Of a stretch of 33,676 nucleotides of DNA, positions 3,572 to 31,899 are shown piece by piece; within the stretch, counting starts at the first letter, position 1, and every line of letters begins with the position of its first letter. Under the pieces are notes generated by a model that searched no databases, was not told the origin of the DNA, and worked only from the letters and a program-made list of their open reading frames with translations. Both the position numbers and the translations under genes were made by a program. Source of the stretch: a virus (lineage: Duplodnaviria > Heunggongvirae > Uroviricota > Caudoviricetes); the IMG/VR virus record IMGVR_UViG_2690315994_000029, positions 1 to 33,676 of that record; one strand, 5' to 3'.

Positions 3572-4501
3572 ATGAGTGAATTTGGTGGTCAGCAACCCGC
3601 ACCCCAACAAGTACTGGACTTAGGTGTTAGTACTGAGGGGGTTTTTAACGAAATAGAAATGGGGGTTCTTCAGAACGGGATCTCCTACCTTACGCAAAAT
3701 GGGCTGGCCAGGATTTGCGGGGTGCATCGCAGTAATATCGCGGATATTTCTCGAGAGTGGGAAGAGAGCTTCCGCCACGGAGTTTTCGCTCGAGGGCGTA
3801 TGGAGTTTATCAGCTCATATTTACAGCGTGAGCAATATAATGAGCCGACTCTTTATATCACAATCAACAAAGATGGGTCAGTCCATTATGCGTACCCAGA
3901 AGTAGTCTGTATGGCTATTCTGGAGTTCTACGCATTTGTATCTCAAAGTGCTGCAACTCCTACTGCGCTACAGTTTTTCCGCGAGCTATCCCGTGCGGGT
4001 ATGCGTGGTTACATCTATACAGCGCTTGGCTACATACCTGATGACCCTTGGCGTCATTACCACTCTCGTGTGTCAATCATGCATGGGGCAAACTCGGTTC
4101 CTGCTGGACACTTCATTGTATTCAATGAAATTGCCGGTTTAATGGTAGACCTCATCCATGCTGGATTAGCAGTAAACCAGTACACTGTACCGGATATCAG
4201 TGTGGGCCAGCACTGGGCTCGCTACTGGTCTTCTTCCAACTACGATGCGACGATTGGCCCAAGACAACGCTGCCAGCACTATTACCCTGAAGAATTCAAC
4301 CAATCCGCAAGTAATCCCCAAATGGTCTATGCATACCCTGATAATGCTTTAGCTGTATTCAGGCACTGGCTTCGTGCGGTTTATTTACCAACCAAATTCC
4401 CTAAATACCTTCTGAGTAAAGCAGGGCTATTGGCTGGCGGACAAACGGCGGCGTTGCAAATTATTGATAATTTTAATAATCGTGCATTACCTAACCCATA
4501 A
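3572..4501 (+). CDS. hypothetical protein with KilA-N/Bro-N-like N-terminal region; function unknown (candidate defence/exclusion gene)
   Basis: 309-aa ORF, ATG 3572 with TAAGGA 11 nt upstream; only plus-strand gene inside the minus-strand early operon; N-terminal segment NGISYLTQNGLARICGVHRSNIADISREW looks like a phage DNA-binding (KilA-N/Bro-N type) module; C-terminal part unrecognised. Confidence 0.7.
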   Translation: MSEFGGQQPAPQQVLDLGVSTEGVFNEIEMGVLQNGISYLTQNGLARICGVHRSNIADISREWEESFRHGVFARGRMEFISSYLQREQYNEPTLYITINKDGSVHYAYPEVVCMAILEFYAFVSQSAATPTALQFFRELSRAGMRGYIYTALGYIPDDPWRHYHSRVSIMHGANSVPAGHFIVFNEIAGLMVDLIHAGLAVNQYTVPDISVGQHWARYWSSSNYDATIGPRQRCQHYYPEEFNQSASNPQMVYAYPDNALAVFRHWLRAVYLPTKFPKYLLSKAGLLAGGQTAALQIIDNFNNRALPNP

Positions 4502-6289: not shown

Positions 6290-8353
6290 TTAATCCTTAC
6301 GGTAGTGGTACGCCTCAAAACCGCCAGCGTTCAGTGGGATATCGGGCGCCCATTCGGGGTTAGTGGAGAGAAGCGCGGAAAGCGCTTTATCGTTGAAATC
6401 TTCTGTGTCAGGTGCTTCGGTGATCACCTCGTCGTGTACCGTCAGCACAATGCTGTAACCGGCATCTTCGATAAGCGGCATGTTTCCGGCCAGAACGTCG
6501 CGGGCGGCCGCCTGGGTGACGTTCTCTACCAGCTTTCCGCCGTAGGTTTTGAGTCGTTGCCATTTACGCGAATAAGAGTTAACACCCATATAGGTGATAT
6601 CCCCTTTTTCGATAACCGGAGACGGGTAGCATACAGCGCGTCCAGATGGCAGCTGTATGCGCAGCCACGCGCCATCACGTCGGATTTTAAGATAGCCGCA
6701 ATACAATGTTTTTTGCGGTGTGGCGATTGCTGTGCGGACGGTGCACTCCAGTTCGTACCAGAAATCACAGGTCGCGGGATGCGCCCGGCGCCAGAGACGT
6801 TTAAGTGAGTCGCAGGCGATAAATACCCGTTCAGAAAGCCCGTAGGTCGATTTACGTTTAACCGATTCGTCGTACCAGCTTTTCGCCTCGCGGATAACAT
6901 CGCGGGGAATGTTTGGCAGTGCGGCGTTCGCCAGCCCGTCGAGATCGAGACCGTAAACCAGAGCAAAAGTGATGAAAGCCGATACACCTCCTCCATAACC
7001 CAGACCGAGTTCCATGACTTTACCGATCTGACGCATGTGTTTATCAACATCATCTGGTGCAATATCGAAAGCTTTTGCATACGCCAGTTTATATAAGTCC
7101 GGACCCGTTCCGGCGTCGTACTCTCTGAATGCATTCAGTTTCCATTCTTCTCCCGCCAGCCATGCCAGCATACGGCCTTCAATGTTCGACAAGTCACTTA
7201 CCACCAGCTTTTTGCCTGTTGGCGCGATAATGCAGCCACGTAACGCTGAACTGGTTAGTTCCATGATATTGTCAAACAGCAGGTCTGCACATCCGGCTTT
7301 CAGTGCTTCGATGCCTTCGTCTATTTGTTCCTGTTTTAGTGAAGGGCGGGGAAGGTTCTGGGGCTGGAATAGCCGTCCGGCCCAACGACCGGTACGTGAC
7401 GCCCCGCAGAACTGTAGCGTACCGCGTAAGCGCCCGTCGTGGCTTACGCCTTTCATCAGTGCCTTGTATTTACTGGTGCTGGTAGTACTGGCCTGCAGGC
7501 GGATAGCCAGCAGTTCTTTCACGGCAGATGGTAAATCGGGGTCGGCAATACGACGTTCCAGAGTACTGCGTTGCATGTCTGGTAGCTCCACACCGTAGGA
7601 TTCAACAATGTGCTTAATCAACGCGTCTCGTTGTGTGGCTGCCTGCACTTCGCCATCAGTCATTTCCTGTGTACGCTTTGCCAGGCGCTTTTGTTCCTGG
7701 TCTACCGCGTCGATCGCAGCGCGTGCGAGTTCCACGTCCATGCAGACGCCCCGGTCATTGATCTGCTGATCACGATGCCAGAGCGCCAGTTCTGTCCCCT
7801 GATAATTCCACTTCGGCAGACGTTTATAGACTTCGCGCATTGCCTCGATATCCAGTCCGGCGTAAGCAACAAAGCGCCGCCATTCTTCCGGGTGGGTTTT
7901 GCTGGTGGCCCGGCGCAGTTTGCTGTTTTTCGGGCGTGGCTTACAGAACAGCTGGATCAGCGCTTTACCTTCTTTGTCCTTCGCTTTGTCTTGCGGGACG
8001 CCTAGTACTTCGCAGAGTTCCCCCAGAGCCCCCGGGAGACCGTGCGCCAGCGCCTGCACCATCGTGTCGCGCCAACGTTCGACTGGCGGTGCCAGTCGCG
8101 GCATTGCATAACGCAGGACGGTGCGGTCGAAGTGAGAGTTATGAAAATAAAGCAGGGTTTCAGGGGCTGCGATTGCTTCGTATAAGCCGTGTGGAATACC
8201 ACCACCGGCAGTGATATCCCATACGTTTACTGGCCCGTCGTTGATAGCCCATGCGAACAGCATCACTTCAACGCCTTCGGCATACGCATGGGTACCGTTC
8301 GTAATAGGGATTTCGCAATAGGTTTCCAGGTCGCCCCATAGTATATTGGACAT
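6290..8353 (-). CDS. family-A DNA polymerase (Pol I-like, phage replicative)
   Basis: 687 aa; Pol A motif A-like [14 protein letters not shown], motif B-like [16 protein letters not shown], motif C VHDE; N-terminal exonuclease-like region. Confidence 0.85.
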
Positions 8354-8399: not shown

Positions 8400-9029
8400 A
8401 TGCATATGATCCAATACTTGATTGACCATACAGAGCATCTGGAGAAAATAGCTGGATATATTTTTTCATGTTTGATTGTTATGGGAGTCTGGATAAGAAA
8501 GATCATTTTTAATTATAAGTATAAAGAGCCTAAATATGTCAAGAAGTTAATTTTATATTTAGTTAAGTATGAACGTTATCTGGATAAGGAGGATAAGAGT
8601 GCCATAGAAAAAAGAATAAATGATAAAATTATTCGTGATGCGCTGAAATTGCAATCTTCTTATAACCGAAGTGATGTTATTTACATTTGCAATAGATTAG
8701 AAAAAAGACAGTATATAAATCAGGTGATTAAGCTTCAGAATTATATAGAGAAAGATAACGGAGTGTTTTTCATCAATGTTAATTTTTCAGGTTTTTTATT
8801 TATTATTAGTCGTCTGTTTTCCTTTCTGTGTTTTGTGCTGTTTATCCTTTTTTCTATTATCTGCATTATTTCCATAGGGCAAAATGAAGGCCTTTTAAAT
8901 TATCTTGTGTATATGGTTATGACAATAGTTTTAGAGACTGTTGGTTTTTGGATGTATGATACTTTCCCGTCTAAGAAGAAGATCTGTGAACTAAATAAAG
9001 AATTGAGGAAGATTAAGATTCCTGAGTGA
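8400..9029 (+). CDS. hypothetical multi-pass membrane protein, AT-rich moron
   Basis: 209-aa ORF with GC visibly far below flanks (roughly 30 percent vs about 50 percent, by eye); hydrophobic segments IAGYIFSCLIVMGVWI, FSGFLFIISRLFSFLCFVLFILFSIICIISI, LLNYLVYMVMTIVLETVGFWMY; opposite strand to flanking replication genes. Confidence 0.7.
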   Translation: MHMIQYLIDHTEHLEKIAGYIFSCLIVMGVWIRKIIFNYKYKEPKYVKKLILYLVKYERYLDKEDKSAIEKRINDKIIRDALKLQSSYNRSDVIYICNRLEKRQYINQVIKLQNYIEKDNGVFFINVNFSGFLFIISRLFSFLCFVLFILFSIICIISIGQNEGLLNYLVYMVMTIVLETVGFWMYDTFPSKKKICELNKELRKIKIPE

Positions 9030-10949: not shown

Positions 10950-11852
10950 TTAACCCTCCAGTGCTTTTTCAGCCAGGGTGATTACTTCAGCGAGATTTTC
11001 ATCCGTTACTTCACCAAGTTTCCTGGCTCCCTGTTTTTCCAGAATTGCAATAGCTTCTGCCCGGTAACCCCCTTTTGCTAACTGGAGGATCAACCCTTCA
11101 GCTTGTTTGCGTAGTGCCGCGAAATCAATTGTATGGTCATCTTTGGCGTCATGATTCTGGCTGGAATTTGCTGCGTCTCTGCGTGCAAATTCTTCTTGCA
11201 GCTGAAGGTACTCAACACGGTTGATCTCGATATGGCCTTTTTTCAGCATCTCGTTCAACTTGCGTAAGGTGTGGAGTTCACTGGCTGCTGTGCCGGATAC
11301 ATTTTTGACGTAAAACGGCCCCGTGCGTTCTCCATCTTTGTTACTGGCCTTTTTCGGCTTAACTTCATCACGCCCATCCGCAGGTGCATCAAGTAGCTGC
11401 TCGGCAAAAACACGTCGCTCGCCGATGGTTGGCAGGTCGTCCCAGAACTTAAGGATGTTACGGGACAGGTCCAGGAGAGCAGGTTTAAGCAGCGCCCTGG
11501 CTCGTTTGACGCCCTGCAATGCGCTGTCGAGAGCATCAATCTGAACTACTCGTTTATCGCCTTCAGCATCACGGTAGGCAACAGCACGTTGCAGCATGTC
11601 TTCTGTGATAGGGGTGGCTACCGGGTAGAAACCAGCCAGTGCGATAACGTCGCTGAACTCCAGATCATCCAGTGTCATTGCCGCTGACATATTTTCAGTT
11701 TCAGTTGCTGTATCCCGACATTCCTGCACTCGTGAAATCGTGTCAGGATGCATAACAATGCCTGATGCCATTGTGCGGATAAGACGTTCAAGCAGCGCAT
11801 TATGTTGTGCCAGAAGTTGATTATTAAGTTCGAGACTGGTTTCTAAACTCAT
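10950..11852 (-). CDS. hypothetical phage protein
   Basis: 300-aa ORF tightly packed in the operon (ATGA overlap with the next gene); no motif recognised. Confidence 0.6.
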
Positions 11853-12019
11853 ACTGTGGTCCTCGCTACAAGGAGAATGAAAGTGATGATCAGACCGAGC
11901 GCAGTGGCAACGGCCAGACCGGTCATCAAATCGAAGTTTTTACGGCGATAACGGAGAACATCGCGCCCCGTCAGTCGATGGAGGTATTCAGGTTTCATCG
12001 GTTGTATTCCTTTTTTCAT
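11849..12019 (-). CDS. small membrane protein (first gene of early-left operon)
   Basis: 56 aa from ATG 12019 (track start 12031 is GTG); C-terminal hydrophobic helix LAVATALGLIITFILLVA. Confidence 0.45.
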   Translation of the reverse strand: MKKGIQPMKPEYLHRLTGRDVLRYRRKNFDLMTGLAVATALGLIITFILLVARTTV

Positions 12020-12054
12020 ATCGGGGAGCACGCTGTTGCGAGTGCGCTTTCAGA

Positions 12055-12222
12055 CATAAAAAAGCCCGTCACTTGAGGCGGGCAAAGGCTACACACAGCA
12101 ATTACTTGGATGTCAGCGAATGCCTGCTTTTAACCACGTCAGACGAGATGGCTCTCTCTGTACCCCTACAGCGAGAATTCGGCTAATATCTCTTTACCCC
12201 TATAGTTTTAGAGAGAATTAAG
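12055..12222. promoter_or_regulatory. putative divergent promoter/operator region (early-left operon and 12223 gene)
   Basis: Minus-strand hairpin GCCCG...CGGGC followed by a T-run (12055-12083); perfect palindrome CTGTA-cccc-TACAG at 12158-12171; TAATAT at 12184-12189. Confidence 0.35.
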
Positions 12223-12747
12223 ATGTCTGAAGAAAAAGGACTTGTACGGCGTATAACTGAGGCGGCCACTAGTGCTGGTGGTGCTTTGAAAGGTGCTGTT
12301 GATTTAGCAAAAGAAGTTAATGCGTTGCAGGTGGATTACAATGTTAAAAGTAAAACTATCGATCTACTTGATAAACTAATTGATGCGCGTACTGGACAAT
12401 TCGCACTAACGGAGCTTTTGAACGAAGCTAAACAGCGCATTGTTGAACTCGAATCCCTTCTGGAAAAGAAACAGGATTGGGATAGTGAGAAAATGAACTA
12501 TGAAATGTACCACCCGATTACCAATACGGTGGTCTATGTACTGAAGCCTACTGACGATCCTGAGTTCAAGCCTCATTATCTTTGTACTACATGCTATGAG
12601 TCGGGTATGAAGTCTATACTTCAATACCATACTTCTAATGCCGCTTATAAAATTCTCAAGTGTCATAAATGCTCCGCTGAATATAAATTTCCCCGAAATA
12701 TAGAAGTCAGTGGCAAAACTCCTGCACCGTTACAACCTGCCAGATGA
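12223..12747 (+). CDS. hypothetical coiled-coil / zinc-ribbon protein in the immunity region
   Basis: 174 aa; charged helical N-terminal half; C-terminal CTTC ... CHKC pair; GC lower than backbone by eye; convergent with cI. Confidence 0.65.
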   Translation: MSEEKGLVRRITEAATSAGGALKGAVDLAKEVNALQVDYNVKSKTIDLLDKLIDARTGQFALTELLNEAKQRIVELESLLEKKQDWDSEKMNYEMYHPITNTVVYVLKPTDDPEFKPHYLCTTCYESGMKSILQYHTSNAAYKILKCHKCSAEYKFPRNIEVSGKTPAPLQPAR

Positions 12748-13110
12748 TTAGCAGTTCTCTTTGGTGGTGGTGTAGTGGTAGATGCTGAACTTCGGATTGA
12801 CTCAATGGACTGATCTTCACCCCACCCCAAAAGGAACTAAGCGCCCCATCGTCGGGGCGTTTCAACTTGCGTGACTTATCAGTTTGTCGCGGTGTTGTCC
12901 TCTACGCTTACCGTACGCATACGGACTCGGCGCTTACCTCGATCCCATCGGGTGCTATTTCGTTTTGCCAGGAGTACTGCGGCTTACCTGTCACGCGGTT
13001 CAGTTTGTTAAAGAGCCAGTATTAAAAAACGCATTAATTATGCGATATCGTATTTATATGCGTTATGGGATTTTGTGTCAATACGAAAATGAATTATTTT
13101 GCAAATAAGA

Positions 13111-13135
13111 AAACCGCCCTTGTGGAGAGCGGTTT
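13111..13135 (-). terminator. putative rho-independent terminator downstream of cI
   Basis: AAACCGC / GCGGTTT stem; on the minus strand followed by U-rich UCUUAUUUGC. Confidence 0.45.
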
Positions 13136-13165
13136 GATCAGAAGTAAGTTATCAGACTGTAAAGG

Positions 13166-13840
13166 TTAGTACATACGTAGCGCGGATTTGGCGATCCCCG
13201 CCACGTAATGGATTTTTTCAATGTTTTCGCGTGGTACTCTGACTGGTGGATGATCTTCATTTACAGACATTAGATGGAACAGGCCATCGCGTTCGAACAA
13301 GAAGGTTTTAACCATGACCTCACCTTCCCGGGTAACCACAAGTACTTCATCACCAGGAGTGTAGTCGTGGTTGGGTTCGACGATTACGAACTCCCCCTCT
13401 TTGATTCTAGGCATCATTGAATCACCAACACATTTCAGGGCGTATGCATCTTCATCCTTTGTCGGCCAGTATATGAAACCATCACTGCTACCTACTGAAT
13501 ATTGGGTGTCGCTCCAAAGTCCTCCAACGCCTAGCTGAGTGTTTCCCAAAACAGGTACTTTATTAAACCTAAGAGAAATATACGTTTTTATACCTGTCGC
13601 GTCCTCTTTCTCCATTTCTTGAAGGCTCCTTTCTGCCAAGTCTATTGGTGACACGTGGAAGTAGTCGGCGATCTGCTTTAACGTTGCGTATTTCGGATCT
13701 TTCACCTCTCCTGATACCAGCCTGTGTAGCGTTGGTTGGTTCAGCTGTAACCGACGTGCCAGCTCAGTTATCGAGCTTATCTTGGCTTTGTCCATCAGGT
13801 ACTTGATGTTTTGAGAAAGGATATCGGTAGTATCAATCAT
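13166..13840 (-). CDS. cI: CI-like prophage repressor (HTH + S24 LexA-like peptidase domain)
   Basis: 224 aa; N-terminal HTH (ITELARRLQLNQPTLHRLVSG); C-terminal CVGDSMMPRI catalytic Ser motif and downstream Lys (VMVKTF); divergent from a cro-like gene. Confidence 0.85.
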   Translation of the reverse strand: MIDTTDILSQNIKYLMDKAKISSITELARRLQLNQPTLHRLVSGEVKDPKYATLKQIADYFHVSPIDLAERSLQEMEKEDATGIKTYISLRFNKVPVLGNTQLGVGGLWSDTQYSVGSSDGFIYWPTKDEDAYALKCVGDSMMPRIKEGEFVIVEPNHDYTPGDEVLVVTREGEVMVKTFLFERDGLFHLMSVNEDHPPVRVPRENIEKIHYVAGIAKSALRMY

Positions 13841-13981
13841 TTGGATTCATCCATGTTGTATACAGGGACGGTGATTATGCGTTATCGGATATTTTAATCT
13901 AGGATGACATAGAATTGCTGTATTGCTGAGTAATCCGTTTTCGTATAAATTTGCGCTATAGACGAAAGTGGAGACTTAAAT
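13841..13981. promoter_or_regulatory. cI/cro divergent intergenic operator-promoter region
   Basis: 141 bp between divergent repressor genes; palindromic TGTATACA at 13856-13863; possible rightward promoter TTGCTG ... TATAAA about 13923-13950. Confidence 0.5.
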
Positions 13982-19292: not shown

Positions 19293-19865
19293 ATGACTAA
19301 GAAGCTGAAAGCAAAACACGAGGTGTTTTGTCGCGAGTTTCTTGTCGATCTGAATGCTACACAAGCAGCTATTCGCGCAGGCTACGTCTCCAGGCGAGCA
19401 CATGTTACGGGGGCTGAACTATACGGTAAACCTGAGATACGCGCCCGTATTAACGAGCTAAAGCAGGAGCGTATTGATCAACTGGGCATTGATGCGAATT
19501 ATGTGCTGATGCGACTGGTTGAGATCGACAGGCTCGATGTGGCTGACATCCTGGAGGACGATTTAAGTATTAAGCCTCTGTCTGCGTGGCCGGAATCGTG
19601 GCGTCGGTACCTGAGTGGATTTAACCTCGCTGAAATGTTTGAGGGGCGAGGAGATGACAGAGAAATGGTCGGGATCCTTAAAAAGATTAAGTGGCCTGAT
19701 AAGGTTAAAAACCTTGAGTTGCTTGGGCGTCATGTTTCTGTTCAGGCGTTTAAAGACAACGTCAAAAATGAAGTGACTGGCGCTGATGGAGGACCCGTCA
19801 GAACAGAAATTACCAACTTAACGCCGGAGCAGGCTGCAGAGGCGTATAGAAAAATGATGGGCTAA
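19293..19865 (+). CDS. terminase small subunit
   Basis: 190 aa; N-terminal [23 protein letters not shown] typical of small terminases; directly upstream of large terminase. Confidence 0.7.
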
Positions 19866-20544: not shown

Positions 20545-20545
20545 N

Positions 20546-21724
20546 TGACTCACAATGGGCGGCAATTTGTTCCATTGCCCCAAAGATTGGCTGTACGCCA
20601 GAGACTCTGCGTGTGTGGGTTCGTCAGCATGAGCGGGATACCGGGAGTGGTGATGGTGGATTCACCACCGCTGAACGTCAGCGTCTGAAAGAGCTGGAAC
20701 GTGAAAATCGTGAACTGCGCCGCAGTAACGATATCCTTCGCCAGGCTTCCGCTTATTTTGCGAAGGCGGAGTTCGACCGCCTCTGGAAAAAATAATGCCA
20801 CTGCTGGATAAGCTGCGTGAGCAGTACGGGGTCGGACCGGTATGCAGTGAACTGCATATTGCCCCGTCAACGTATTACCACTGTCAGCAACAGCGACATC
20901 ATCCTGATAAACGCAGTGCCCGTGCGCAGCGCGATGACTGGCTGAAGAGAGAGATACAGCGCGTATACGATGAAAATCATCAGGTGTACGGTGTGCGTAA
21001 AGTCTGGCGCCAGTTGTTACGCGAAGGTATCAGGGTGGCCAGATGTACAGTGGCGCGCCTCATGGCGGTTATGGGACTTGCCGGTGTTCTCCGGGGTAAA
21101 AAGGTCCGTACTACCGTCAGCCGGAAAGCCGTTTCCGCAGGCGACCGCGTAAACCGTCAGTTCGTGGCAGAACGTCCTGACCAGCTGTGGGTGGCTGATT
21201 TTACTTACGTCAGCACATGGCAGGGCTTCGTCTATGTGGCGTTCATCATTGATGTGTTTGCCGGATGCATCGTGGGGTGGCGAGTCTCATCGTCTATGGA
21301 AACGACATTCGTGCTGGATGCACTGGAGCAGGCGTTGTGGGCCCGTCGGCCGTCCGGCACAGTCCATCACAGTGATAAAGGTTCTCAGTATGTATCACTG
21401 GCCTATACGGAGCGACTAAAAGAAGCAAAACTGCTGGCATCAACAGGGAGTACAGGTGACTCGTATGACAACGCGATGGCGGAGAGCATCAATGGTCTTT
21501 ACAAAGCGGAGGTAATACACCGTAAGAGCTGGAAAAACCGTGCAGAAGTGGAACTGGCCACACTCACGTGGGTGGACTGGTATAACAATCGACGATTGCT
21601 GGGAAGGCTGGGTCATATCCCTCCGGCAGAAGCAGAAAAAGCTTATTATGCTTCCATCAGAAACGATGATCTGGCAGCCTGAGTTCACAGATAAAACACT
21701 CTCCAGGAAAACCGGGGCGGTTCA
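20546..21724 (+). mobile_element. IS3-family insertion sequence (IS629/IS1203-like by recollection), 5'-truncated at contig join
   Basis: Partial orfA (20547-20795), TAATG overlap into orfB, right terminal repeat ending CCGGGGCGGTTCA at 21724; left end and first ~28 codons of orfA missing. Confidence 0.75.
20795..21682 (+). CDS. IS3-family transposase OrfB (DDE integrase domain)
   Basis: 295 aa with DDE-type catalytic region (WVADFTYV ... HHSDKGSQY ... DNAMAES); normally made as an OrfAB frameshift fusion. Confidence 0.8.
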   Translation: MPLLDKLREQYGVGPVCSELHIAPSTYYHCQQQRHHPDKRSARAQRDDWLKREIQRVYDENHQVYGVRKVWRQLLREGIRVARCTVARLMAVMGLAGVLRGKKVRTTVSRKAVSAGDRVNRQFVAERPDQLWVADFTYVSTWQGFVYVAFIIDVFAGCIVGWRVSSSMETTFVLDALEQALWARRPSGTVHHSDKGSQYVSLAYTERLKEAKLLASTGSTGDSYDNAMAESINGLYKAEVIHRKSWKNRAEVELATLTWVDWYNNRRLLGRLGHIPPAEAEKAYYASIRNDDLAA

Positions 21725-21725
21725 G

Positions 21726-21815
21726 AATGTGCTGTGGAACTGGATCCTGTTCCGTAAATTTTCCTCTCCGGAGGAAGTCGAAAATGTGGCCGCGCAGTTA
21801 CTGGAGTTTGCGTAA
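21726..21815 (+). pseudogene. 3' remnant of a phage gene interrupted by the IS element
   Basis: In-frame tail ...NVLWNWILFRKFSSPEEVENVAAQLLEFA whose stop overlaps the next ATG (TAATG), as in a packed phage operon; 5' part is not in the window. Confidence 0.35.
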
Positions 21816-22105
21816 TGGTGGATTTACGTAAAGCGGCGCGGGGGCAGATGTGCACCGTCAGAATTCCTGGCTACTGCAATCACAATCCCGAAACTTCTGT
21901 GCTGGCGCATTACAGGCTGGCGGGGACGTGCGGAACAGCGACAAAACCACACGATATGCAGGCAGCGATTGCCTGTAGCTCATGCCACGATTTAATCGAC
22001 GGGCGGGTAAAAAACAGCGATTACACCAAAGAAGAATTACGCCTGATGCATGCAGAAGGTGTTTTTCGCACACAAGAAATCTGGAGAAAGGAAGGTTATT
22101 TATGA
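21815..22105 (+). CDS. YbcO-like (DUF1364) nin-region protein
   Basis: 96 aa; DLRKAARGQMCTVRIPGYCNHNPETSVLAHYRLAG ... IACSSCHDLID resembles E. coli DLP12 YbcO as I recall it. Confidence 0.65.
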   Translation: MVDLRKAARGQMCTVRIPGYCNHNPETSVLAHYRLAGTCGTATKPHDMQAAIACSSCHDLIDGRVKNSDYTKEELRLMHAEGVFRTQEIWRKEGYL

Positions 22106-22656
22106 TTTACCCAACAAATACAGGCAAAAGCGGGGAACACCTTCGTCTCTCCACGCTGGAAAGTGTCTGGATTCAGGGAAAACTGCGCATGTGGGGGCGC
22201 TGGTCGTATATTGGCGGCGGTAAGACGGGAAATATGTTCAACCAGTTGCTGACCTCTAAAAAGCTGACAAAAACGGCAATTAACGAGGCGCTCCGGAGGA
22301 TGAAAAAAGCAGGTCTGGACAAACCTGAACTTGAGGCTTTTTTGCGGGATATGATCAACGGCAAGCAAAAAAGCTGGCTGGTGCATTGTACTGATGCAGA
22401 GGCGTTATGCATTGATCGGGTGATTAGTGAAGTGCTGGCAGAACACCCAGGATTGATTTGTATCCTCCGGCAAAGATATGAAGGGCGGGGGATGAGTAAG
22501 CGCAAAATGGCTGAATTGCTAAATGATGCACACCCTGAGTGGTGTTTTCGGACGTGCTGCAGTCGGGTAGATGTATGGCTAAATCTTGCTGAATATATGC
22601 TCTATCTGCCGATGCGTGATGCATTCTCTTCCGGGTATTTAAAAACTGTCTGTTGA
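22102..22656 (+). CDS. putative Q-like late antiterminator (second, divergent allele)
   Basis: 184 aa from ATG 22102 (AAAGGAAGG RBS, ATGA overlap with previous gene); shares the W-G-x-W N-terminal motif and C-terminal HTH-like region with the 16661 Q-like protein; followed by a terminator. Confidence 0.5.
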   Translation: MIYPTNTGKSGEHLRLSTLESVWIQGKLRMWGRWSYIGGGKTGNMFNQLLTSKKLTKTAINEALRRMKKAGLDKPELEAFLRDMINGKQKSWLVHCTDAEALCIDRVISEVLAEHPGLICILRQRYEGRGMSKRKMAELLNDAHPEWCFRTCCSRVDVWLNLAEYMLYLPMRDAFSSGYLKTVC

Positions 22657-22744
22657 CTCAATCTGTTATCCGGGGCTATATTCCTCACGCGCCAGCAAAA
22701 TCTGGCGTCGGGATTAGGAACCCCGGATAGAGACCGCGACAGAC

Positions 22745-22766
22745 ACACGCCGCGAGCGTGTTTTTT
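22745..22766 (+). terminator. putative rho-independent terminator (tR'-like) after the Q-like gene
   Basis: ACACGC-cgcga-GCGTGT followed by TTTTTTATT; preceded by hairpin CGCCAG-caaaat-CTGGCG at 22690-22707. Confidence 0.55.
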
Positions 22767-22929
22767 ATTGTCGTATGCACGCGCACATCTGAATTATGGT
22801 GGGGCGTATGGGGGAGCTGAAAAGCTCGCCGGTTGGTTTCCCGGTAGTTCCTAACCCTGTACGTCTCACCACCCGATGATTAGGAACCTGACGGTGGTGA
22901 TGGTTTAGAAACCACCAGAGGGCGTCATT

Positions 22930-23511
22930 ATGACAACTCAAATTTCTGTTGAAACTCTCTCCCCGATCACCCATAACCAGATTCCTGTTATTACCACCGA
23001 ACTTTTGGCGCAGTTGTACGGTGCTGAAGTTAAGAACATTCAAAATAACTACGCCAGAAATGCTGAGCGCTTTATTGAAGGAAAGCATTTTTTCAAAGTG
23101 GCTGGCGATGCCCTGAAAAATTTGCGGGTAGCTTTAAACTACTCACAAAATTTGCAACCATCTTTAAGAGGGTTACAAATTTCCCCGAAAGCCCGCTCCC
23201 TCATCCTCTGGACAGAACGCGGAGCAGCCCGTCATGCCAAAATGCTCGAAACCGATCAGGCGTGGGATGTGTTCGAAAAGCTGGAAGACTGCTATTTCAG
23301 ACAAAAGGATCCGTCAGCGCCAGTTTCATGCCAGAAAAGTTACGACACGCGAGTTCTCTGTTATCAGCGAGGCGGTGTCACTGTTTCCACAATTCAGTTA
23401 CGGGATGATGATATTGTTATTTCCCTTGAGTCATGGCTGGAACTGGCGAGAGCCAATGGTTGGTTTGTTGTTCGCAGAGATAAACTGGTGGAAAGGTTGA
23501 TGCAGCTTTAA
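22930..23511 (+). CDS. ORF6N-domain protein (antirepressor-like DNA-binding cargo gene)
   Basis: 193 aa; N-terminal ITTELLAQLYGAEVKNIQNNYARNAERFIEGKHFFKV matches the ORF6N domain pattern as I know it; sits in the Q-to-holin slot. Confidence 0.65.
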   Translation: MTTQISVETLSPITHNQIPVITTELLAQLYGAEVKNIQNNYARNAERFIEGKHFFKVAGDALKNLRVALNYSQNLQPSLRGLQISPKARSLILWTERGAARHAKMLETDQAWDVFEKLEDCYFRQKDPSAPVSCQKSYDTRVLCYQRGGVTVSTIQLRDDDIVISLESWLELARANGWFVVRRDKLVERLMQL

Positions 23512-23606
23512 AAAAGTTCTTGCATTTTTGCACATAAACTGCTTCAATTCCGGTACGCTTCGCAAAGCTGTATCGCGAGGCGAATCAAGCGCATGAACTT
23601 TACCAG

Positions 23607-23635
23607 AACCCGCCATTGAGCGGGTTTTGTTGTTT
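23607..23635 (+). terminator. putative rho-independent terminator
   Basis: AACCCGC-cattga-GCGGGTT followed by TTGTTGTTTC. Confidence 0.5.
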
Positions 23636-23858
23636 CTGACGGATAGAAAAATGAAATAGCTAAATAAAAAGAATGCATTGGATGCCATATATTGGCAACG
23701 TGACGACAGCGTTAATCTGGTCGGGCTCCCATGGCGACGTAGTGAGGGAGAGGAAGCGTAAAGCATCACTGAGTTACGGTTGGCACCCGGTTTAACGCGT
23801 AAGTGGCCTGATAAAGAGATAGTGCGCCGCGGCACTCACAGCGGCAACGATTAACTGA

Positions 23859-23885
23859 CCTCGGCATTTGCCGAGGTTTTTTATT
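23859..23885 (+). terminator. putative rho-independent terminator
   Basis: CCTCGGC-attt-GCCGAGG followed by TTTTTTATTT. Confidence 0.6.
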
Positions 23886-24006
23886 TAAGGCCGCAGACAG
23901 GCCCATTTAGTGCAACGCCTTTCCCCGTTTCCGCTCCTGGAATATTCGGGGATTTTTTATTCCCTCAATTTGCACCCGCGATATGTGCGAGGTGAGAGAT
24001 GATGAA

Positions 24007-24342
24007 ATGCCTCATAACCCAAATACCTGGCCGGACTGGCTGGAGTTGTTTCAGAGCTGGTGGCGTGGAGACACACCGCTGGGTGCAGTGATTATGTCGA
24101 TCGTTATGGCTGGTTTGCGCATCGCCTATTTTGGCGGTGGTGGGGGCTGGAAACGAAAAACGCTTGAGATTTTGCTCTGTGGTGCCCTGACGCTGACCTT
24201 TGCATCCGCGCTTGAGTATGTCGGATGGCCTAAATCACTTTCTGTTGCCATTGGTGGTGGGGTGGGGCTGATTGGTGTTGATGCTATTCGTGGTGCGGCA
24301 ATGAGGGTCATCGGTAACAAGTTCGGTGCCCATAAGGAGTAA
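24007..24342 (+). CDS. holin (second copy, divergent N-terminus)
   Basis: Identical to the 17902 holin from WWRGDTPLGAV onward except for the last residues; different N-terminus; start ATG 24007. Confidence 0.65.
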   Translation: MPHNPNTWPDWLELFQSWWRGDTPLGAVIMSIVMAGLRIAYFGGGGGWKRKTLEILLCGALTLTFASALEYVGWPKSLSVAIGGGVGLIGVDAIRGAAMRVIGNKFGAHKE

Positions 24343-24345
24343 TTA

Positions 24346-24822
24346 ATGCAGACACTTAATTCCCAGCGTAAAGCTTTCCTTGATATGGTGGCATGGTCAG
24401 AAGGAACGGATAACGGGCGACAACCGACACGTAACCACGGTTATGATGTTATTGTTGGTGGCGAACTGTTCACTGATTACTCCGATCACCCTCGCAAACT
24501 TGTCACACTAAATCCGACACTCAAATCAACAGCCGCCGGACGTTACCAGCTTCTTTCACGCTGGTGGGATGCCTACCGCAAGCAACTTGGTCTGAAAGAT
24601 TTTTCTCCAGAAAGCCAGGATGCTGTAGCGCTGCAGCAGATTAAAGAGCGTGGCGCTTTACCGATGATTGACCGCGGCGATATTCGTCAGGCAATCGACC
24701 GGTGCAGCAATATCTGGGCGTCGTTACCTGGTGCAGGTTACGGTCAGTATGAACATAGAATCGGTGACCTGATTTCCCGATTTAAAGAAGCTGGTGGGGT
24801 GGTAAATGAAGCTGAGATATAA
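24346..24822 (+). CDS. R: endolysin, lambda R-like lytic transglycosylase (second copy)
   Basis: 158 aa, about 95 percent identical to the 18247 copy by eye. Confidence 0.9.
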   Translation: MQTLNSQRKAFLDMVAWSEGTDNGRQPTRNHGYDVIVGGELFTDYSDHPRKLVTLNPTLKSTAAGRYQLLSRWWDAYRKQLGLKDFSPESQDAVALQQIKERGALPMIDRGDIRQAIDRCSNIWASLPGAGYGQYEHRIGDLISRFKEAGGVVNEAEI

Positions 24823-25198
24823 GCTGGTTATTGTTGCCTTCTTTGTTACCGTCATCGGTTCTTTTATCTGGTCTGCCGGGCATTACTACAGCAAATATCA
24901 ACACGAAAAGGAGCGTGCTGATGAGGCTGTACGAAATGCTGAATCTGCAACAGCCATTACCAGTAACGTCCTGCAATCACTGCAAATCATCAATACAGTT
25001 ATAGAGGCTAACCAGCATGCAAAACAGCAGATCGCACTGGAGTCACAGAGAACCCAGGAAGATATCAAAGTGGCTGTTGCGGATGATGATTGTGCTGTTC
25101 GTATCGTTCCTTCTGGCGCAGTTAAGCGGTTGCACGAATACGCGAACGGTATACGTGTCGGTGCCGGTCGTTCCGTTACCAGCCAGTCTGACGGATGA
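24806..25198 (+). CDS. Rz: Rz-like i-spanin (second, divergent copy)
   Basis: 130 aa; N-terminal TM helix plus coiled coil; overlaps the R stop. Confidence 0.7.
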   Translation: MKLRYKLVIVAFFVTVIGSFIWSAGHYYSKYQHEKERADEAVRNAESATAITSNVLQSLQIINTVIEANQHAKQQIALESQRTQEDIKVAVADDDCAVRIVPSGAVKRLHEYANGIRVGAGRSVTSQSDG

Positions 25199-25361
25199 AA
25201 CACCCCAGCCAGATTTACCCGACCCGTTTACGTGGGGAGCCAGCATTAACCTGAATGTTGCGTTGTTGTCAGCGTTAGCACAGTGCAACAGGGATAAGGC
25301 TGATATCAGGACTTTTGAGAAAAATAGGGCAGCACAAACTAATGGCACGATTAAACGTTGA
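25083..25361 (+). CDS. Rz1: Rz1-like o-spanin lipoprotein (overlapped, extends past Rz)
   Basis: Alternate frame; lipobox LAQLSGC and Pro-rich PVVPLPASLTDETPQPDLPDP; start taken at MMIVLF (25083). Confidence 0.5.
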   Translation: MMIVLFVSFLLAQLSGCTNTRTVYVSVPVVPLPASLTDETPQPDLPDPFTWGASINLNVALLSALAQCNRDKADIRTFEKNRAAQTNGTIKR

Positions 25362-25527
25362 AGTTATCCCACCAGACAGCGAAACGATGAACGGGATTTT
25401 TGCAGAGATTGAACGTAAATATGCGCATCAGCCGATGACGCCAAAAGTTATCGATGAAATGCAACGCGAAGCGGCGCGCCTTGTACGGCGAGCGACAAAC
25501 ACGAAGGTTACGTTCGTTCGGGACTGA
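25342..25527 (+). CDS. small hypothetical protein
   Basis: 61-aa ORF from ATG 25342 in the extra segment that prophage B has between Rz and the conserved hairpin; weak RBS. Confidence 0.3.
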   Translation: MARLNVEVIPPDSETMNGIFAEIERKYAHQPMTPKVIDEMQREAARLVRRATNTKVTFVRD

Positions 25528-25664
25528 CATTACAGAAGCTCCTTTGATAAGGAGCTTCGATAATGTCACTAAGAGGAAAAATTCATGGCAAAACCGGACT
25601 GGGAGGCCATCGAATCGGTGCCCCGGGCCAGATTGCTCTCTCCGTTAAATCAGAACTCAAAATC

Positions 25665-26120
25665 CTATCCGTGGAAAATATTTGCATCCAAATCATCTAT
25701 GAGATTAGACCTAACTGATTCATAATTTTTCCCATATGCGGCCCCTTTACCTGAATGGGTTACATGCCCAATAGGACCGTACAGAAGTATAGAGATTGTG
25801 AATGATATTTCATCAGAAATGCCGCCTATCTTTTGAAACCAAAGTTCCGGGTTACGATTCCGGTCGGTTACAACGTCAAATACAAGCGCGATAAGATCTG
25901 GGAGATAGTACATGTTAAATCCGCCTTTTGGGGTCAACTCGAGATTCAACAGGGCTTTGATGGAGGGATAATTGCTTACATCATCCTGAATGCCATTCTT
26001 AAGAGTTGTAAACACAAAGTTCAGCATTTCAGCAACTTTATCTTTGTTTGGTTCTACTCCATTTCTGAAGGACCGCTCTCCAGATTCATATTTTTCAACA
26101 CAAAAATCTAATAAATTCAT
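25665..26120 (-). CDS. hypothetical soluble protein, low-GC moron between lysis and terminase genes
   Basis: About 151 aa (ATG 26120 with GGGGA RBS; track start 26126); opposite strand to the late operon; GC visibly lower than flanks; no motif recognised. Confidence 0.6.
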   Translation of the reverse strand: MNLLDFCVEKYESGERSFRNGVEPNKDKVAEMLNFVFTTLKNGIQDDVSNYPSIKALLNLELTPKGGFNMYYLPDLIALVFDVVTDRNRNPELWFQKIGGISDEISFTISILLYGPIGHVTHSGKGAAYGKNYESVRSNLIDDLDANIFHG

Positions 26121-26142
26121 TATCATTCCCCGAGGTAACTAA

Positions 26143-26694
26143 ATGGCGCTCACCGACAAACAAGAGATGTTCTGTCGCGAGTACCTCATCGATTTAAACG
26201 CCACGCAAGCGGCTATTCGGGCGGGGTACAGCGCTAAGACAGCTAACCGTACCGCATCCGAAAACCTGTCAAAACCTGACATCAAGTTAAGAATCGCCGA
26301 ACTGAAAGCGCAACGCAATGATCTTGTTGGTATTAATGCAGAATATGTACTTAATCGCCTTATTGAAATCGACCAGATGGATGTGCTTGACATTCTCCTG
26401 CAAAACGGTGAGCTAAAACCCATTAAAGACTGGCCTAAGGTATGGCGCACAACGCTATCAGGAATGGATGTCGTGGAGATGGTATCCGCAGATAGCGCCG
26501 CACTTCTGAAGAAAATCAAATGGCCTGATAAGGTTAAAAACCTTGAGTTGCTTGGGCGCCATGTTTCTGTTCAGGCGTTTAAAGACAACGTCAAAAATGA
26601 AGTGACTGGTGCTGACGGAGGACCAGTCAGAACAGAAATTACCAACTTAACGCCGGAGCAGGCTGCAGAAGCGTATAAAAAAATGATGGGCTAA
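26143..26694 (+). CDS. terminase small subunit (second allele, mosaic)
   Basis: 183 aa; N-terminal two thirds diverged from the 19293 copy, C-terminal ~60 aa near-identical. Confidence 0.7.
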
Positions 26695-26696
26695 GT

Positions 26697-27562
26697 ATGC
26701 CGTTACCATTTCACTTCGATTTTAAACATCCTGATTACCAGATGGTTTTTGAATGGCGGATGGAACGCTTACAGCGCATTCGCCAGAACCCTGAAATATT
26801 GCCTGCACTAAAACAGTTTTACCGAACCAATCCGGCTCAGTTCATCATCGACTGGGGCATGACAACGGACCCGCGTAATATTGATTATGGCCTGCCGGTG
26901 ACCATTCCGTTTTTACTCTTCCCTAAGCAGGAGGAGTGGATCCACTGGATTATGGAACGCTGGAGCAATCGGGAGAATGGTATTACCGAAAAATCCCGTG
27001 AAATGGGGCTCAGTTGGACCGCGATCGGACTGGCCTGCTCGCTTTGTCTCTTCAACAAAGAAATGGTTATCGGTTTCGGCTCCCGTAAAGAGGAATACGT
27101 CGACAGCACTGGTGACCCGAAAGCATTGTTCTGGAAGGCACGCAAGTTCGTGGAAACGCTACCTGTAGAGTTTCGCGGTTCGTGGAGTGAGAAGAAGCAC
27201 GCGCCATATATGCGTGTTGAGTTTCCTGAAACTGGTGCCGTTATCAAAGGCGAGGCTGGCGATAATATTGGTCGTGGTGACCGTACCACGCTTTATCTGG
27301 TTGATGAGGCTGCATTCCTTCAGCGTCCTCTGCTGATTGATGCGGCGTTGTCACAAACGACGCGTTGCCGTATTGACCTGAGTTCAGTTAACGGCATGGC
27401 GAACCCGTTCGCTCAGAAGCGTCATGGCGGGAAGATACCGGTATTCACATTCCACTGGCGGGATGATCCTCGCAAGGATGAAGAGTGGTATCGCAGGGAA
27501 TGCGAGAAAATCGATAATCCGGTGGTGGTGGCACAGGAACTAGATCTGAACTACAGCGCATC
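26697..27562 (+). CDS. terminase large subunit, 3'-truncated at contig join
   Basis: Same N-terminal sequence as 19868 with a few substitutions; cut by 'n' at 27563. Confidence 0.7.
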
Positions 27563-27563
27563 N

Positions 27564-29018
27564 CTAATAAATTCATTATCATTCCCCGAGGTAACTAAAT
27601 GGCGCTCACCGACAAACAAGAGATGTTCTGTCGCGAGTACCTCATCGATTTAAACGCCACGCAAGCGGCTATTCGGGCGGGGTACAGCGCTAAGACAGCT
27701 AACCGTACCGCATCCGAAAACCTGTCAAAACCTGACATCAAGTTAAGAATCGCCGAACTGAAAGCGCAACGCAATGATCTTGTTGGTATTAATGCAGAAT
27801 ATGTACTTAATCGCCTTATTGAAATCGACCAGATGGATGTGCTTGACATTCTCCTGCAAAACGGTGAGCTAAAACCCATTAAAGACTGGCCTAAGGTATG
27901 GCGCACAACGCTATCAGGAATGGATGTCGTGGAGATGGTATCCGCAGATAGCGCCGCACTTCTGAAGAAAATCAAATGGCCTGATAAGGTTAAAAACCTT
28001 GAGTTGCTTGGGCGCCATGTTTCTGTTCAGGCGTTTAAAGACAACGTCAAAAATGAAGTGACTGGTGCTGACGGAGGACCAGTCAGAACAGAAATTACCA
28101 ACTTAACGCCGGAGCAGGCTGCAGAAGCGTATAAAAAAATGATGGGCTAAGTATGCCGTTACCATTTCACTTCGATTTTAAACATCCTGATTACCAGATG
28201 GTTTTTGAATGGCGGATGGAACGCTTACAGCGCATTCGCCAGAACCCTGAAATATTGCCTGCACTAAAACAGTTTTACCGAACCAATCCGGCTCAGTTCA
28301 TCATCGACTGGGGCATGACAACGGACCCGCGTAATATTGATTATGGCCTGCCGGTGACCATTCCGTTTTTACTCTTCCCTAAGCAGGAGGAGTGGATCCA
28401 CTGGATTATGGAACGCTGGAGCAATCGGGAGAATGGTATTACCGAAAAATCCCGTGAAATGGGGCTCAGTTGGACCGCGATCGGACTGGCCTGCTCGCTT
28501 TGTCTCTTCAACAAAGAAATGGTTATCGGTTTCGGCTCCCGTAAAGAGGAATACGTCGACAGCACCGGTGACCCGAAAGCATTGTTCTGGAAGGCGCGCA
28601 AGTTCGTGGAAACACTACCTGTAGAGTTTCGCGGTTCGTGGAGCGAGAAGAAGCACGCGCCATATATGCGTGTTGAGTTTCCTGAAACTGGTGCCGTTAT
28701 CAAAGGCGAGGCTGGCGATAATATTGGTCGTGGTGACCGTACCACGCTTTATCTGGTTGATGAGGCTGCATTCCTTCAGCGTCCTCTGCTGATTGATGCG
28801 GCGTTGTCACAAACGACGCGTTGCCGTATCGACCTGAGTTCAGTTAACGGCATGGCTAACCCGTTCGCTCAGAAGCGTCATGGCGGGAAGATACCGGTAT
28901 TCACATTCCACTGGCGGGATGATCCTCGCAAGGATGAAGAGTGGTATCGCAGGGAATGCGAGAAAATCGATAATCCGGTGGTGGTGGCACAGGAACTTGA
29001 TCTGAACTACAGCGCATC
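27564..29018. repeat. redundant copy of 26108-27562 (overlapping contig joined by 'n')
   Basis: Sequence after 'n' 27563 restarts at CTAATAAATTCATTATCATTCC and repeats the small and large terminase 5' parts. Confidence 0.85.
27599..28150 (+). CDS. terminase small subunit (redundant copy)
   Basis: Identical protein to 26143-26694. Confidence 0.7.
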
Positions 29019-29237
29019 AGCGGAAGGCGTTCTGATTCCATCCGAATGGGTACAGGCTGCCGTTGATGCGCATATCAAACTGGGTATCCAGCCAACAGGC
29101 AAACGACTTGGCGCGATGGATGTCGCCGACGAAGGCAGGGACAAAAATGCCTTTTCCACCCGTCATGGCTTCCTCCTGGAAAATGTGCGGGAATGGTCCG
29201 GTGTGGGCAGCGACATTTATCAGTCCGTCGAGAAGGT
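28153..29237 (+). CDS. terminase large subunit, partial (to 'n' at 29238)
   Basis: 361 codons through Walker motifs and into the nuclease-like domain ([16 protein letters not shown]); the 738-aa track ORF is an artefact fusion across the 'n'. Confidence 0.7.
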
Positions 29238-29238
29238 N

Positions 29239-29830
29239 GAGAAGAAGCACGCGCCATATATGCGTGTTGAGTTTCCTGAAACTGGTGCCGTTATCAAAGG
29301 CGAGGCTGGCGATAATATTGGTCGTGGTGACCGTACCACGCTTTATCTGGTTGATGAGGCTGCATTCCTTCAGCGTCCTCTGCTGATTGATGCGGCGTTG
29401 TCACAAACGACGCGTTGCCGTATTGACCTGAGTTCAGTTAACGGCATGGCGAACCCGTTCGCTCAGAAGCGTCATGGCGGGAAGATACCGGTATTCACAT
29501 TCCACTGGCGGGATGATCCTCGCAAGGATGAAGAGTGGTATCGCAGGGAATGCGAGAAAATCGATAATCCGGTGGTGGTGGCACAGGAACTTGATCTGAA
29601 CTACAGCGCATCAGCGGAAGGCGTTCTGATTCCATCCGAATGGGTACAGGCTGCCGTTGATGCGCATATCAAACTGGGTATCCAGCCAACAGGCAAACGA
29701 CTTGGCGCGATGGATGTCGCCGACGAGGGCAGGGACAAAAATGCCTTTTCCACCCGTCATGGCTTCCTCCTGGAGAATGTGCGGGAATGGTCCGGTGTGG
29801 GCAGCGACATTTATCAGTCCGTCGAGAAGG
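29239..29830. repeat. redundant copy of about 28646-29237
   Basis: Sequence after 'n' 29238 restarts inside the large terminase at GAGAAGAAGCACGCGCC. Confidence 0.8.
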
Positions 29831-30369: not shown

Positions 30370-30420
30370 TGGCACGAAACAAACAAGCCCTGCGGCGAAC
30401 TGCGCAGGCNNNNNNNNNNN

Positions 30421-31888: not shown

Positions 31889-31899
31889 NNNNNNNNNNN

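Follow-up and report, generated by a model that had tools for sequence, protein, structure and literature searches.

The DNA analysed here (the window) comprises positions 1-33,676 of IMG/VR record IMGVR_UViG_2690315994_000029, a virus of the class Caudoviricetes. Its open reading frame (ORF) at 12223-12747 appears to encode a protein of the Rip1 (ring interacting pore 1) family, carried as a cassette in the position that sieB occupies in lambdoid phages, and the 418-bp gap that follows (12748-13165) appears to be the control region of the early left operon. The probability of this reading is roughly 0.8. An earlier note on this DNA (the original prediction) had proposed a defence gene of unknown type: defence or exclusion is favoured by the Rip1 homology and by the sieB slot and promoter, but the type is a published one whose structure has been solved. 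The family, its structure and its mechanism have been in the literature since 2026, and homologues had by then been described as widespread among prophages. What may be new is the promoter module and swap site shared by sieB and rip1, the leader with a boxA of the ribosomal RNA operon (rrn) type in relatives devoid of an N gene, and an RprA-like element.

Rip1 of phage HK446 was described by Patel, McCarthy, Taylor et al. (Nature 651:1060, 2026) and is summarised in a 2026 review (PMC13434031). According to that review, Rip1 is a single prophage-encoded protein that is not toxic by itself, and phages escape it through mutations in the portal (Pseudomonas phages) or in the small terminase (E. 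coli phages). [quoted passage not shown] The assembly is a pore through which liposomes lose dye and which opens holes in cells, leading to premature lysis. The review adds that homologues are widespread in proteobacteria and mostly prophage-borne. Two other papers agree with this account (PMC13601566 and PMC12908700), the former stating that Rip1 senses the small terminase.

A search of PDB sequences with the product of 12223-12747 gave one strong match, chain L of 9oox, named "ring interacting pore 1 (Rip1)". The alignment extends over residues 3-159 against 3-160 (phmmer, E 8e-45), a 13-sequence profile matches the same protein with E 8e-68, and BLASTP against HK446 Rip1 gives 46.8% identity over 158 amino acids (aa). 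The AlphaFold model, based on 52 homologues (mean predicted local distance difference test score, pLDDT, 78), is composed of helices at residues 2-34 and 39-90 followed by a beta-rich domain at 93-157, in agreement with the helical N-terminal half originally described. Foldseek superimposes this model on 9oox_M with E 4e-11, a target-normalised TM score (TMt) of 0.86 and a root-mean-square deviation of 2.1 Å over 121 columns; no other PDB entry matched with E < 0.3, and the next one, unrelated, had E 0.35. The hydrophobic moment peaks at residues 7-24, the highest value in the protein. By every criterion that can be tested from sequence and predicted structure, the protein belongs to the Rip1 family, and its N-terminal amphipathic helix and C-terminal ring-contacting domain may do here the jobs published for Rip1.

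General family libraries are less informative. The protein matches phrog_1244 in PHROGs (E 2e-43), a family annotated as of unknown function, and scans of Pfam, NCBIfam and PADLOC gave nothing significant; the best PADLOC match was PDC-M27A (E 0.035) in the 2023 library, which predates Rip1. No Pfam match to SieB (PF14163) was obtained. More distant relatives were found by tblastn among the orf25-type genes of the Pseudomonas Mu-like phages JBD30, DMS3, MP38 and D3112 (E 1e-13). The combination of a coiled coil with four cysteines had also raised the possibility of a DksA/TraR-like or Ogr/Com-like zinc-finger regulator, which was rejected in view of the Rip1 match and the lack of any such Pfam match.

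The ORF listing confirms a 174-aa product starting with ATG and encoded on the strand opposite to cI, with an amphipathic, helical N-terminal half (residues 2-90) and a C-terminal four-cysteine ribbon (93-157). The CxxC pairs of the original prediction are C121-x2-C124 and C147-x2-C150. Among the 52 homologues, W86, Y93, Y105, C121 and C124 never vary, and C147 and C150 hardly do. The GC content is indeed lower than that of the backbone: 41.0% (33.7% at third codon positions) against 50.0% in the window and 48.9% in the adjacent left operon. Database searches recovered 61 homologous protein clusters, with members among others from Escherichia, Citrobacter, Edwardsiella, Tatumella, Pantoea, Providencia, Arsenophonus, Photorhabdus, Xenorhabdus, Yersinia, Rahnella, Morganella and more distant sources. 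A codon-level comparison of seven homologous loci gave ratios of nonsynonymous to synonymous substitution rates (dN/dS) of 0.06-0.12 where substitutions suffice to measure them, so that the ORF is under strong purifying selection. Because of these 61 clusters and these ratios, 12223-12747 is a real gene, and the idea that the ORF could be non-coding, without conservation or a signature of selection, fails.

The genomic position of the gene also resembles that of known exclusion genes. HK446 gp37 (rip1) lies on the strand opposite to the early left operon, convergent with N and downstream of the annotated left promoter (PL), and sieB of lambda and P22 occupies the equivalent place, downstream of PL and on the opposite strand. 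A Rip1 homologue was found to the left of a cI-like repressor in nine further prophage contexts (Edwardsiella, Pantoea, two APSE-like elements of Arsenophonus, Citrobacter, Morganella, Yersinia and two E. coli prophage types). Eight of these contexts have it on the strand that does not carry the neighbouring leftward early genes; in the ninth, Edwardsiella, it shares its strand with the nearest gene to its left. In Citrobacter (locus L012, 4324-5495; numbers preceded by L designate the loci compared) sieB and rip1 follow each other on the same strand behind a single sieB-type module, and this tandem is a two-gene exclusion cassette. In the window the gene is a single-gene cassette without a partner, with its own promoter region and terminator, inside a prophage; the neighbours of the homologues differ from one context to another.

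The original prediction had located the gene between the left promoter and the repressor, as in rexAB. This does not hold: the gene lies outside the rexAB position because the candidate left operators (OL) and PL, at 13040-13094, are found between it and cI, and it is not co-oriented with cI. The analogy with sieB, that is, a lysogen-expressed exclusion gene, fares better and is supported by the Rip1 homology, the slot and the predicted promoter.

The region upstream of the gene (12113-12222, plus strand) is a sieB-type promoter/leader module, identified by homology to the sieB upstream regions of lambda and P22, to which 12117-12222 is 81-82% identical (about 96 aligned nt). The P22-pbi record AF527608 annotates "P sieB" on the homologous 31 nt, which correspond to 12159-12189 (TGTACC ... 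TAATAT). The -10-like hexamer TAATAT (12184-12189), aligned with the -10 of that promoter, is flanked by the direct repeats ACCCCTACAG (12162-12171) and ACCCCTATAG (12196-12205). The module also contains an inverted repeat (GCCTG at 12122-12126, CAGAC at 12140-12144) and the Shine-Dalgarno sequence GAGAGA (12211-12216, plus strand). Ranade and Poteete (J Bacteriol 1993) reportedly mapped the start site of P22 sieB and inactivated its promoter through the -10.

This module is conserved in 27 of the 29 distinct complete upstream sequences of rip1, which come from several genera, and across genera the 105-110 nt upstream of the gene are better conserved than the protein itself. Among the relatives examined it is found only in those that carry rip1. 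Its layout is fixed: ACCCCTACAG, 12 nt, TAnnnT, 6 nt, ACCCCTACAG, about 4 nt, GAGAG and ATG. A scan of viral contigs for both repeats returned more than 120 loci. In the 81 matches examined, the downstream ORF was Rip1-like in 19, and about 55 of the ORFs encoded a membrane protein whose N-terminal sequence was that of lambda SieB or similar to it. The two repeats co-vary with rigid spacing: besides the pair in which both copies are ACCCCTACAG, Morganella has two copies of CCCCCACAA and one viral contig two copies of CCGCAACGT; the last two variants each carry a perfect TATAAT (upstream regions of L014 and L041). That the repeats change together between lineages suggests that one factor reads both, although to our knowledge no such factor has been described.

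RNA-level explanations of this conservation were also considered. RNAalifold predicted no pairs in 28 sequences of the rip1 upstream region, and a hairpin with a pseudoknot drawn by hand was 89% paired but had just three compensatory cells. A promoter acting at the DNA level is more economical than a structured 5' untranslated region (UTR), because of the homology with the mapped sieB promoter. Since the upstream region is homologous to the sieB promoter regions of lambda and P22, rip1 is likely to be expressed in the lysogen. P22 sieB is among the functions expressed from the prophage (PMC10883804).

A different role would be that the rip1 product serves the lytic cycle of its own phage, forming on its own terminase or portal ring a pore linked to lysis timing or packaging. 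According to PMC13434031, Rip1 proteins do bind ring-shaped packaging proteins and make pores, and the Pseudomonas Mu-like homologue is located within the late/packaging region. However, here and in the nine enterobacterial contexts the gene is in the region to the left of the immunity genes, opposite to the early genes except in Edwardsiella, and the upstream element, where present, carries a sieB-type promoter like that of the prophage-expressed P22 gene. The close relatives YeP4, CB9615 and B379 have no rip1, which indicates that the gene is dispensable for growth. The phenotype given in the same review is, moreover, defence, with escape mutations in genes of the invader. A function in the phage's own lytic growth is thus very improbable, and exclusion of other phages remains the preferred role.

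The gap was described in the original prediction as an unusually long non-coding stretch with hairpins, at 12841-12860 and, for the cI terminator, at 13111-13135. Its length of 418 bp and both hairpins are as described, and no convincing ORF is present: none is conserved, and the alignment with YeP4 over 12954-13112 differs by 14 nt in length. The stretch is nevertheless readable, as it holds a candidate OL/PL, a leader with a boxA and two terminators. Read leftward from cI, the order is the cI terminator, three operators overlapping PL, boxA, the leader, and the terminator hairpin and 3'UTR of rip1. On sequence grounds, this is where the prophage controls its early left operon.

The cI-like repressor (13166-13840, minus strand) has a helix-turn-helix and an S24 peptidase domain (PF13443, E 4e-12; PF00717, E 5e-18), and its intrinsic terminator (13111-13135, minus strand) was found by the terminator scan as 10 pairs followed by a T-run. 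The candidate PL (13053-13081, minus strand) is close to consensus and consists of a -35 TTGACA (13081 to 13076), a 17-nt spacer and a -10 TATAAA (13058 to 13053), with a predicted start near 13046. It was read from the sequence, as the promoter scan demands T at position 6 of the -10 and hence missed it; PL is placed equivalently in lambda and in HK446. Candidate OL operators are ATGCGATATCGTAT (13040-13053), ATGCGTTATGGGAT (13058-13071) and ATACGAAAATGAAT (13081-13094), and candidate right operators (OR) lie at 13877-13946 (13877-13890 and 13933-13946), between cI and a cro-like gene. An unbiased repeat search ties 13039-13074 and 13081-13104 to the cI-cro intergenic region (direct-repeat family D1, inverted pair I1). 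The pattern ATRCGNNANNGNAT, derived post hoc from those very sites, matches solely at 13040-13094 and 13877-13946 in the 33.7 kb, with 0.7 matches expected.

About 30 nt past the predicted start, the minus strand carries an exact rrn-type boxA, GCTCTTTAACAA (13005-13016), identical to the core of the boxA of the E. coli rrn leaders, which is present in 7 copies per genome (5426 genomes). The 12-mer is unique in the window, and at least one match, with one mismatch allowed, was obtained in 6 of 100 shuffles. Of 11 related loci, 9 contain a single exact copy of the 12-mer, with the same orientation and position in the spacer beside the repressor (for instance at L003 6720-6731, L006 8504-8515, L007 8255-8266, L008 3553-3564, L009 3708-3719 and L011 3664-3675). 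It is conserved in Edwardsiella, Arsenophonus and Yersinia prophages whose immunity regions do not align with the present one, and 7 of the 8 loci examined have a sigma70-like promoter 25-60 nt upstream of it. BoxA brings in NusB/NusE and gives rise to transcription complexes that resist Rho (PMC12360218).

Beyond boxA, the untranslated leader of the predicted early left transcript is a conserved block (12842-13004, minus strand), with 95-98% identity among prophages that differ in their immunity regions and in whether they carry rip1 (L002, L009, L011). Yersinia phage YeP4, which has no rip1, shares the right-hand part of the block at 72% identity. YeP4 and E. coli B379, both devoid of rip1, keep promoter, boxA and leader directly before the left operon. 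E. coli O55:H7 CB9615, also without rip1, keeps a long unannotated spacer with no exact boxA match. Non-coding spacers of 370-740 bp are normal in this phage group. Two small ORFs were seen in these regions: an unannotated one of 64 aa with CxxC...CxxC in the CB9615 spacer (L010 4316-4510, minus strand) and one of 68 aa on the minus strand of L011 (3238-3444).

Whether the gap encodes an independent small regulatory RNA was a question raised in the original prediction. The 175-nt block 12842-13016 is 95-98% conserved despite different immunity regions and slot contents, and its plus-strand fold is marginally more stable than shuffled sequences (z -1.7, 5/100). The degree of identity is, however, weak evidence of constraint because the related prophages are so similar overall. 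Searches of the gap for tRNAs and Rfam families returned nothing, in the case of Rfam even at E up to 5. The minus-strand fold (12830-13048) is no better than shuffles (z +0.77), which also gives no indication of a put- or nut-like structured RNA, and no promoter-terminator pair surrounds the block. Such an RNA is quite unlikely, and the block is explained as a 5' leader that starts at PL and bears boxA.

The left end of the gap belongs to rip1. Its 3'UTR (12748-12840, plus strand) diverges together with the ORF between the cassettes of the 174-aa allele and a 189-aa allele (WP_001288043.1), and is followed by a GC-rich hairpin (12841-12860) with six G-C pairs and the loop ATCGTC. The hairpin, which forms in the folds of both strands, is the probable rip1 terminator, and leftward transcription must read through it. 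Just past the stop codon (12759-12780) there is a motif, CTTTGGTGGTGGT.TAGTG, in common with Edwardsiella (L003, about 6535-6560), where the rest of the 3' region differs; the motif is partly complementary to the promoter repeats.

The 189-aa allele illustrates how the cassette is exchanged. Phages vB_EcoM-606R2, 689R2 and 611R5, and many E. coli prophages, have flanks 97-98% identical to those of the window on both sides but carry this allele, which is about 44% identical to the 174-aa one. Identity is lost about 38 nt into the ORF and regained at about 12830, just before the hairpin. In pairwise comparisons the rip1 cassette (about 12113-12840) is an insert within the PL leader, with borders at 12112/12113 and about 12830. 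The sieB position of lambdoid phages is therefore a swap site, where sieB, rip1 and at least two rip1 alleles have been exchanged behind a shared promoter module. In the 189-aa allele and its related clade, the C-terminal domain is only 25-40% identical, versus about 50% for the helices. This divergence fits a changing specificity for the trigger, although it does not prove it.

On the far side of the cassette, the minus strand carries an RprA-like 3' domain, AAUUGCUGUGUGUAGCCUUUGCCC, with a strong intrinsic terminator (12054-12112; full match 12054-12167), directly upstream of the first ORF of the early left operon (11849-12031, minus strand, 49-60 aa), which is followed by genes for a 300-aa protein, DUF2800, DUF2815 and a DNA polymerase. 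The score against Rfam RF00034 is 45.5 bits (E 6e-5 in 196 nt), under the gathering score of 70, and four related E. coli prophages give matches of 47-55 bits; the block 11951-12112 is common to relatives with and without rip1. The 3' 50 nt are nearly identical to the most conserved part of RprA, namely the segment AAUUGCUGUGUGUAG.CUUUGCCC and the terminator. The element differs from RprA in two respects: conservation does not extend to the 5' half, which in RprA pairs with the rpoS leader, only the 3' half aligning confidently; and it lies at the end of a phage leader and not at the rprA locus, with no promoter of its own found. A literature search with RprA-like terms returned just a chromosomal RprA homologue of Erwinia and no prophage-borne copy.

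The intrinsic terminator (12084-12058), a GC stem followed by U6, invites another reading of PL. The promoter could make just a non-coding antisense RNA of about 1 kb ending there, instead of serving the replication operon; this RNA would be a sas-like anti-rip1 RNA and the source of the RprA-like 3' fragment. The strong terminator directly before the first left-operon ORF agrees with this proposal, no gene for an N-like antiterminator was found, and P22 controls sieB through an antisense RNA (PMC12197685, PMC7067206). Against it, relatives devoid of rip1 keep the arrangement of promoter, boxA, leader and terminator, and in lambda and HK446 the equivalent slot is transcribed through from PL. 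The approximately 55 nt between the terminator and the annotated start of the 49-aa ORF1 (about 11998) hold no promoter-like sequence, which leaves the left operon without another evident promoter. We regard a PL devoted to antisense RNA as unlikely, and a PL that also serves the left operon as the better reading.

If the published pore mechanism applies to the present allele, as its sequence suggests, the lysogen would make Rip1 from the sieB-type promoter, and the protein would be harmless alone. Late in an infection, the small-terminase or portal ring of a superinfecting phage would dock about 12 C-terminal domains of Rip1. The N-terminal amphipathic helices would then form a membrane pore, and the cell would die or lyse before progeny are complete, that is, by abortive infection. 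On induction of the prophage itself, PL would fire and Nus factors bound at boxA would render transcription resistant to termination. The transcript would cross the leader, run antisense through rip1 and past the RprA-like terminator, and enter the replication genes. Convergent transcription from PL would probably lower Rip1 synthesis during the lytic growth of the phage, as P22 sas does with sieB; sas antisense RNA lets P22 bypass its own SieB (PMC12197685, PMC7067206).

These elements could be combined into a sieB-style circuit of self-protection, which has not been described for Rip1. In it, one factor would act on the promoter module through the repeats at about -34 and +1; the convergent PL transcript, armoured by boxA, would silence rip1 on induction, so that the phage's own terminase and portal rings would not trigger suicide; and the PL leader, ending in a mimic of the RprA 3' end, could on induction supply the host network with a small RNA that binds Hfq. 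Taken jointly, these three parts make a speculative proposal with a modest chance of being right.

Several points weigh against the reading of the gene and gap given here. The allele is just 47% identical to the characterised HK446 Rip1, so that its trigger may differ. The -35 of the sieB-type promoter is non-canonical, and PL, the operators and the transcription start are predictions. BoxA/Nus complexes are known mainly to counter Rho, and not strong intrinsic terminators such as 12084-12058. The stretch between PL and rip1 contains no ORF, no N-like protein was found, and inspection of 12842-13004 by eye revealed no convincing boxB-like hairpin, so that nothing recognised here accounts for the passage of left-operon transcription through that terminator. 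Finally, the large terminase gene is cut by an insertion sequence (IS) at about 20544, and regulation linked to induction may therefore be moot in this prophage.

The condition of the prophage also bears on whether rip1 has any current function. The host element is a lambdoid-type E. coli prophage integrated next to yfhL. Positions 1-20544 of the window are 99.8% identical to the prophage beside yfhL in E. coli O103:H2 12009; identical copies are present in enterotoxigenic E. coli (ETEC) H10407 and other strains, and a 99%-identical copy in IAI1. In those prophages the ORF product is annotated merely as "hypothetical protein" WP_001288046.1. Collinearity with the reference prophage stops at 20544, within the large terminase gene, where an IS3-family element starts, and 20545-33676 reflects either rearrangement of a defective prophage or an artefact of assembly. 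The small terminase gene of the prophage lies at 19293-19865. The broken terminase and the rearrangement beyond it would suit a decaying or inactive remnant of rip1 in a defective prophage. However, the ORF is intact and under strong purifying selection, 27 complete E. coli genomes from diverse lineages have an identical or 99%-identical copy, and cryptic prophages typically retain defence genes. A mere remnant is extremely improbable, and rip1 is more probably a functional gene.

Other features of the window were recorded. The IS3-family element contains an ALIL pseudoknot at 20750-20866. Beyond it are a DUF1133/Q-like gene, isrK, a C4 antisense RNA with its a1b1 target and an ORF6N gene, and then, within 20545-33676, many repeated copies of terminase-region fragments that are 97-99.8% identical (for instance 26108-27562 with 27564-29018, and 30421-31888 with 31900-33367). 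To the left of rip1, a 309-aa protein (3572-4501, plus strand) matches the PADLOC model of BstA (E 2e-110), a second prophage-borne abortive-infection defence in the window; its gene is on the opposite strand between the genes for a DEAD-box helicase and a cytosine methyltransferase. For a 209-aa ORF (8400-9029, plus strand), which lies in an island of 28% GC and on the other strand from the replication genes around it, neither Pfam nor PADLOC gave a match; it is another candidate cargo gene.

The analysis gives a function class to the hypothetical protein WP_001288046.1, which is found unchanged in prophages of well-studied strains such as ETEC H10407, O103:H2 12009 and IAI1. It also provides a search rule for further exclusion genes, which can be looked for downstream of the sieB-type module, and natural pairs of alleles for mapping the choice of trigger by Rip1. 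In addition, the boxA leader suggests a way in which lambdoid prophages without N could carry transcription across a long untranslated region, antisense defence gene included.

Among the known systems, the closest is HK446 Rip1 (gp37, PDB 9oox), a full-length homologue with the same N-terminal helices and four-cysteine C-terminal domain. In both phages the gene is a single-gene cassette opposite the PL operon and just downstream of PL, and the upstream promoter elements are 75% identical. The two proteins differ in 53% of their residues, the C-terminal, ring-contacting domain diverging most strongly in several lineages, and the present protein has a C-terminal tail 10 residues longer. Furthermore, the present phage is of another type, lacking an N gene between PL and rip1 and having a DUF2800/DUF2815/PolA/VapE module for replication. 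The Rip1 proteins of Pseudomonas aeruginosa Mu-like phages (the orf25 group of JBD30, DMS3 and D3112) are likewise single prophage-encoded proteins, with about 30% identity to the present one, but their genes lie between those of the terminase subunits in the late region and escape maps to the portal (PMC13434031).

SieB of lambda and P22 shares with the present gene the slot, the promoter/leader module and the class of role, a prophage-expressed abortive exclusion that acts midway through or late in infection. There is, however, no relationship in sequence or fold, SieB being an integral membrane protein, and an internal Esc start and the sas RNA are documented for P22 sieB. RexAB of lambda is also a lysogen-expressed abortive-infection system of the immunity region that kills through membrane damage, but it is located between cI and OL/PL and co-transcribed with cI, whereas rip1 lies beyond PL on the other strand and is not homologous to it. 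Lastly, the boxA of the window resembles both nutL of lambdoid phages and rrn boxA in that it follows an early leftward promoter by about 30 nt and its 12 nt are those of the rrn core. It differs from lambda nutL in being of the perfect rrn type, and not of the weaker lambda CGCTCTTA type, and in standing in a leader where no boxB or N gene was recognised.

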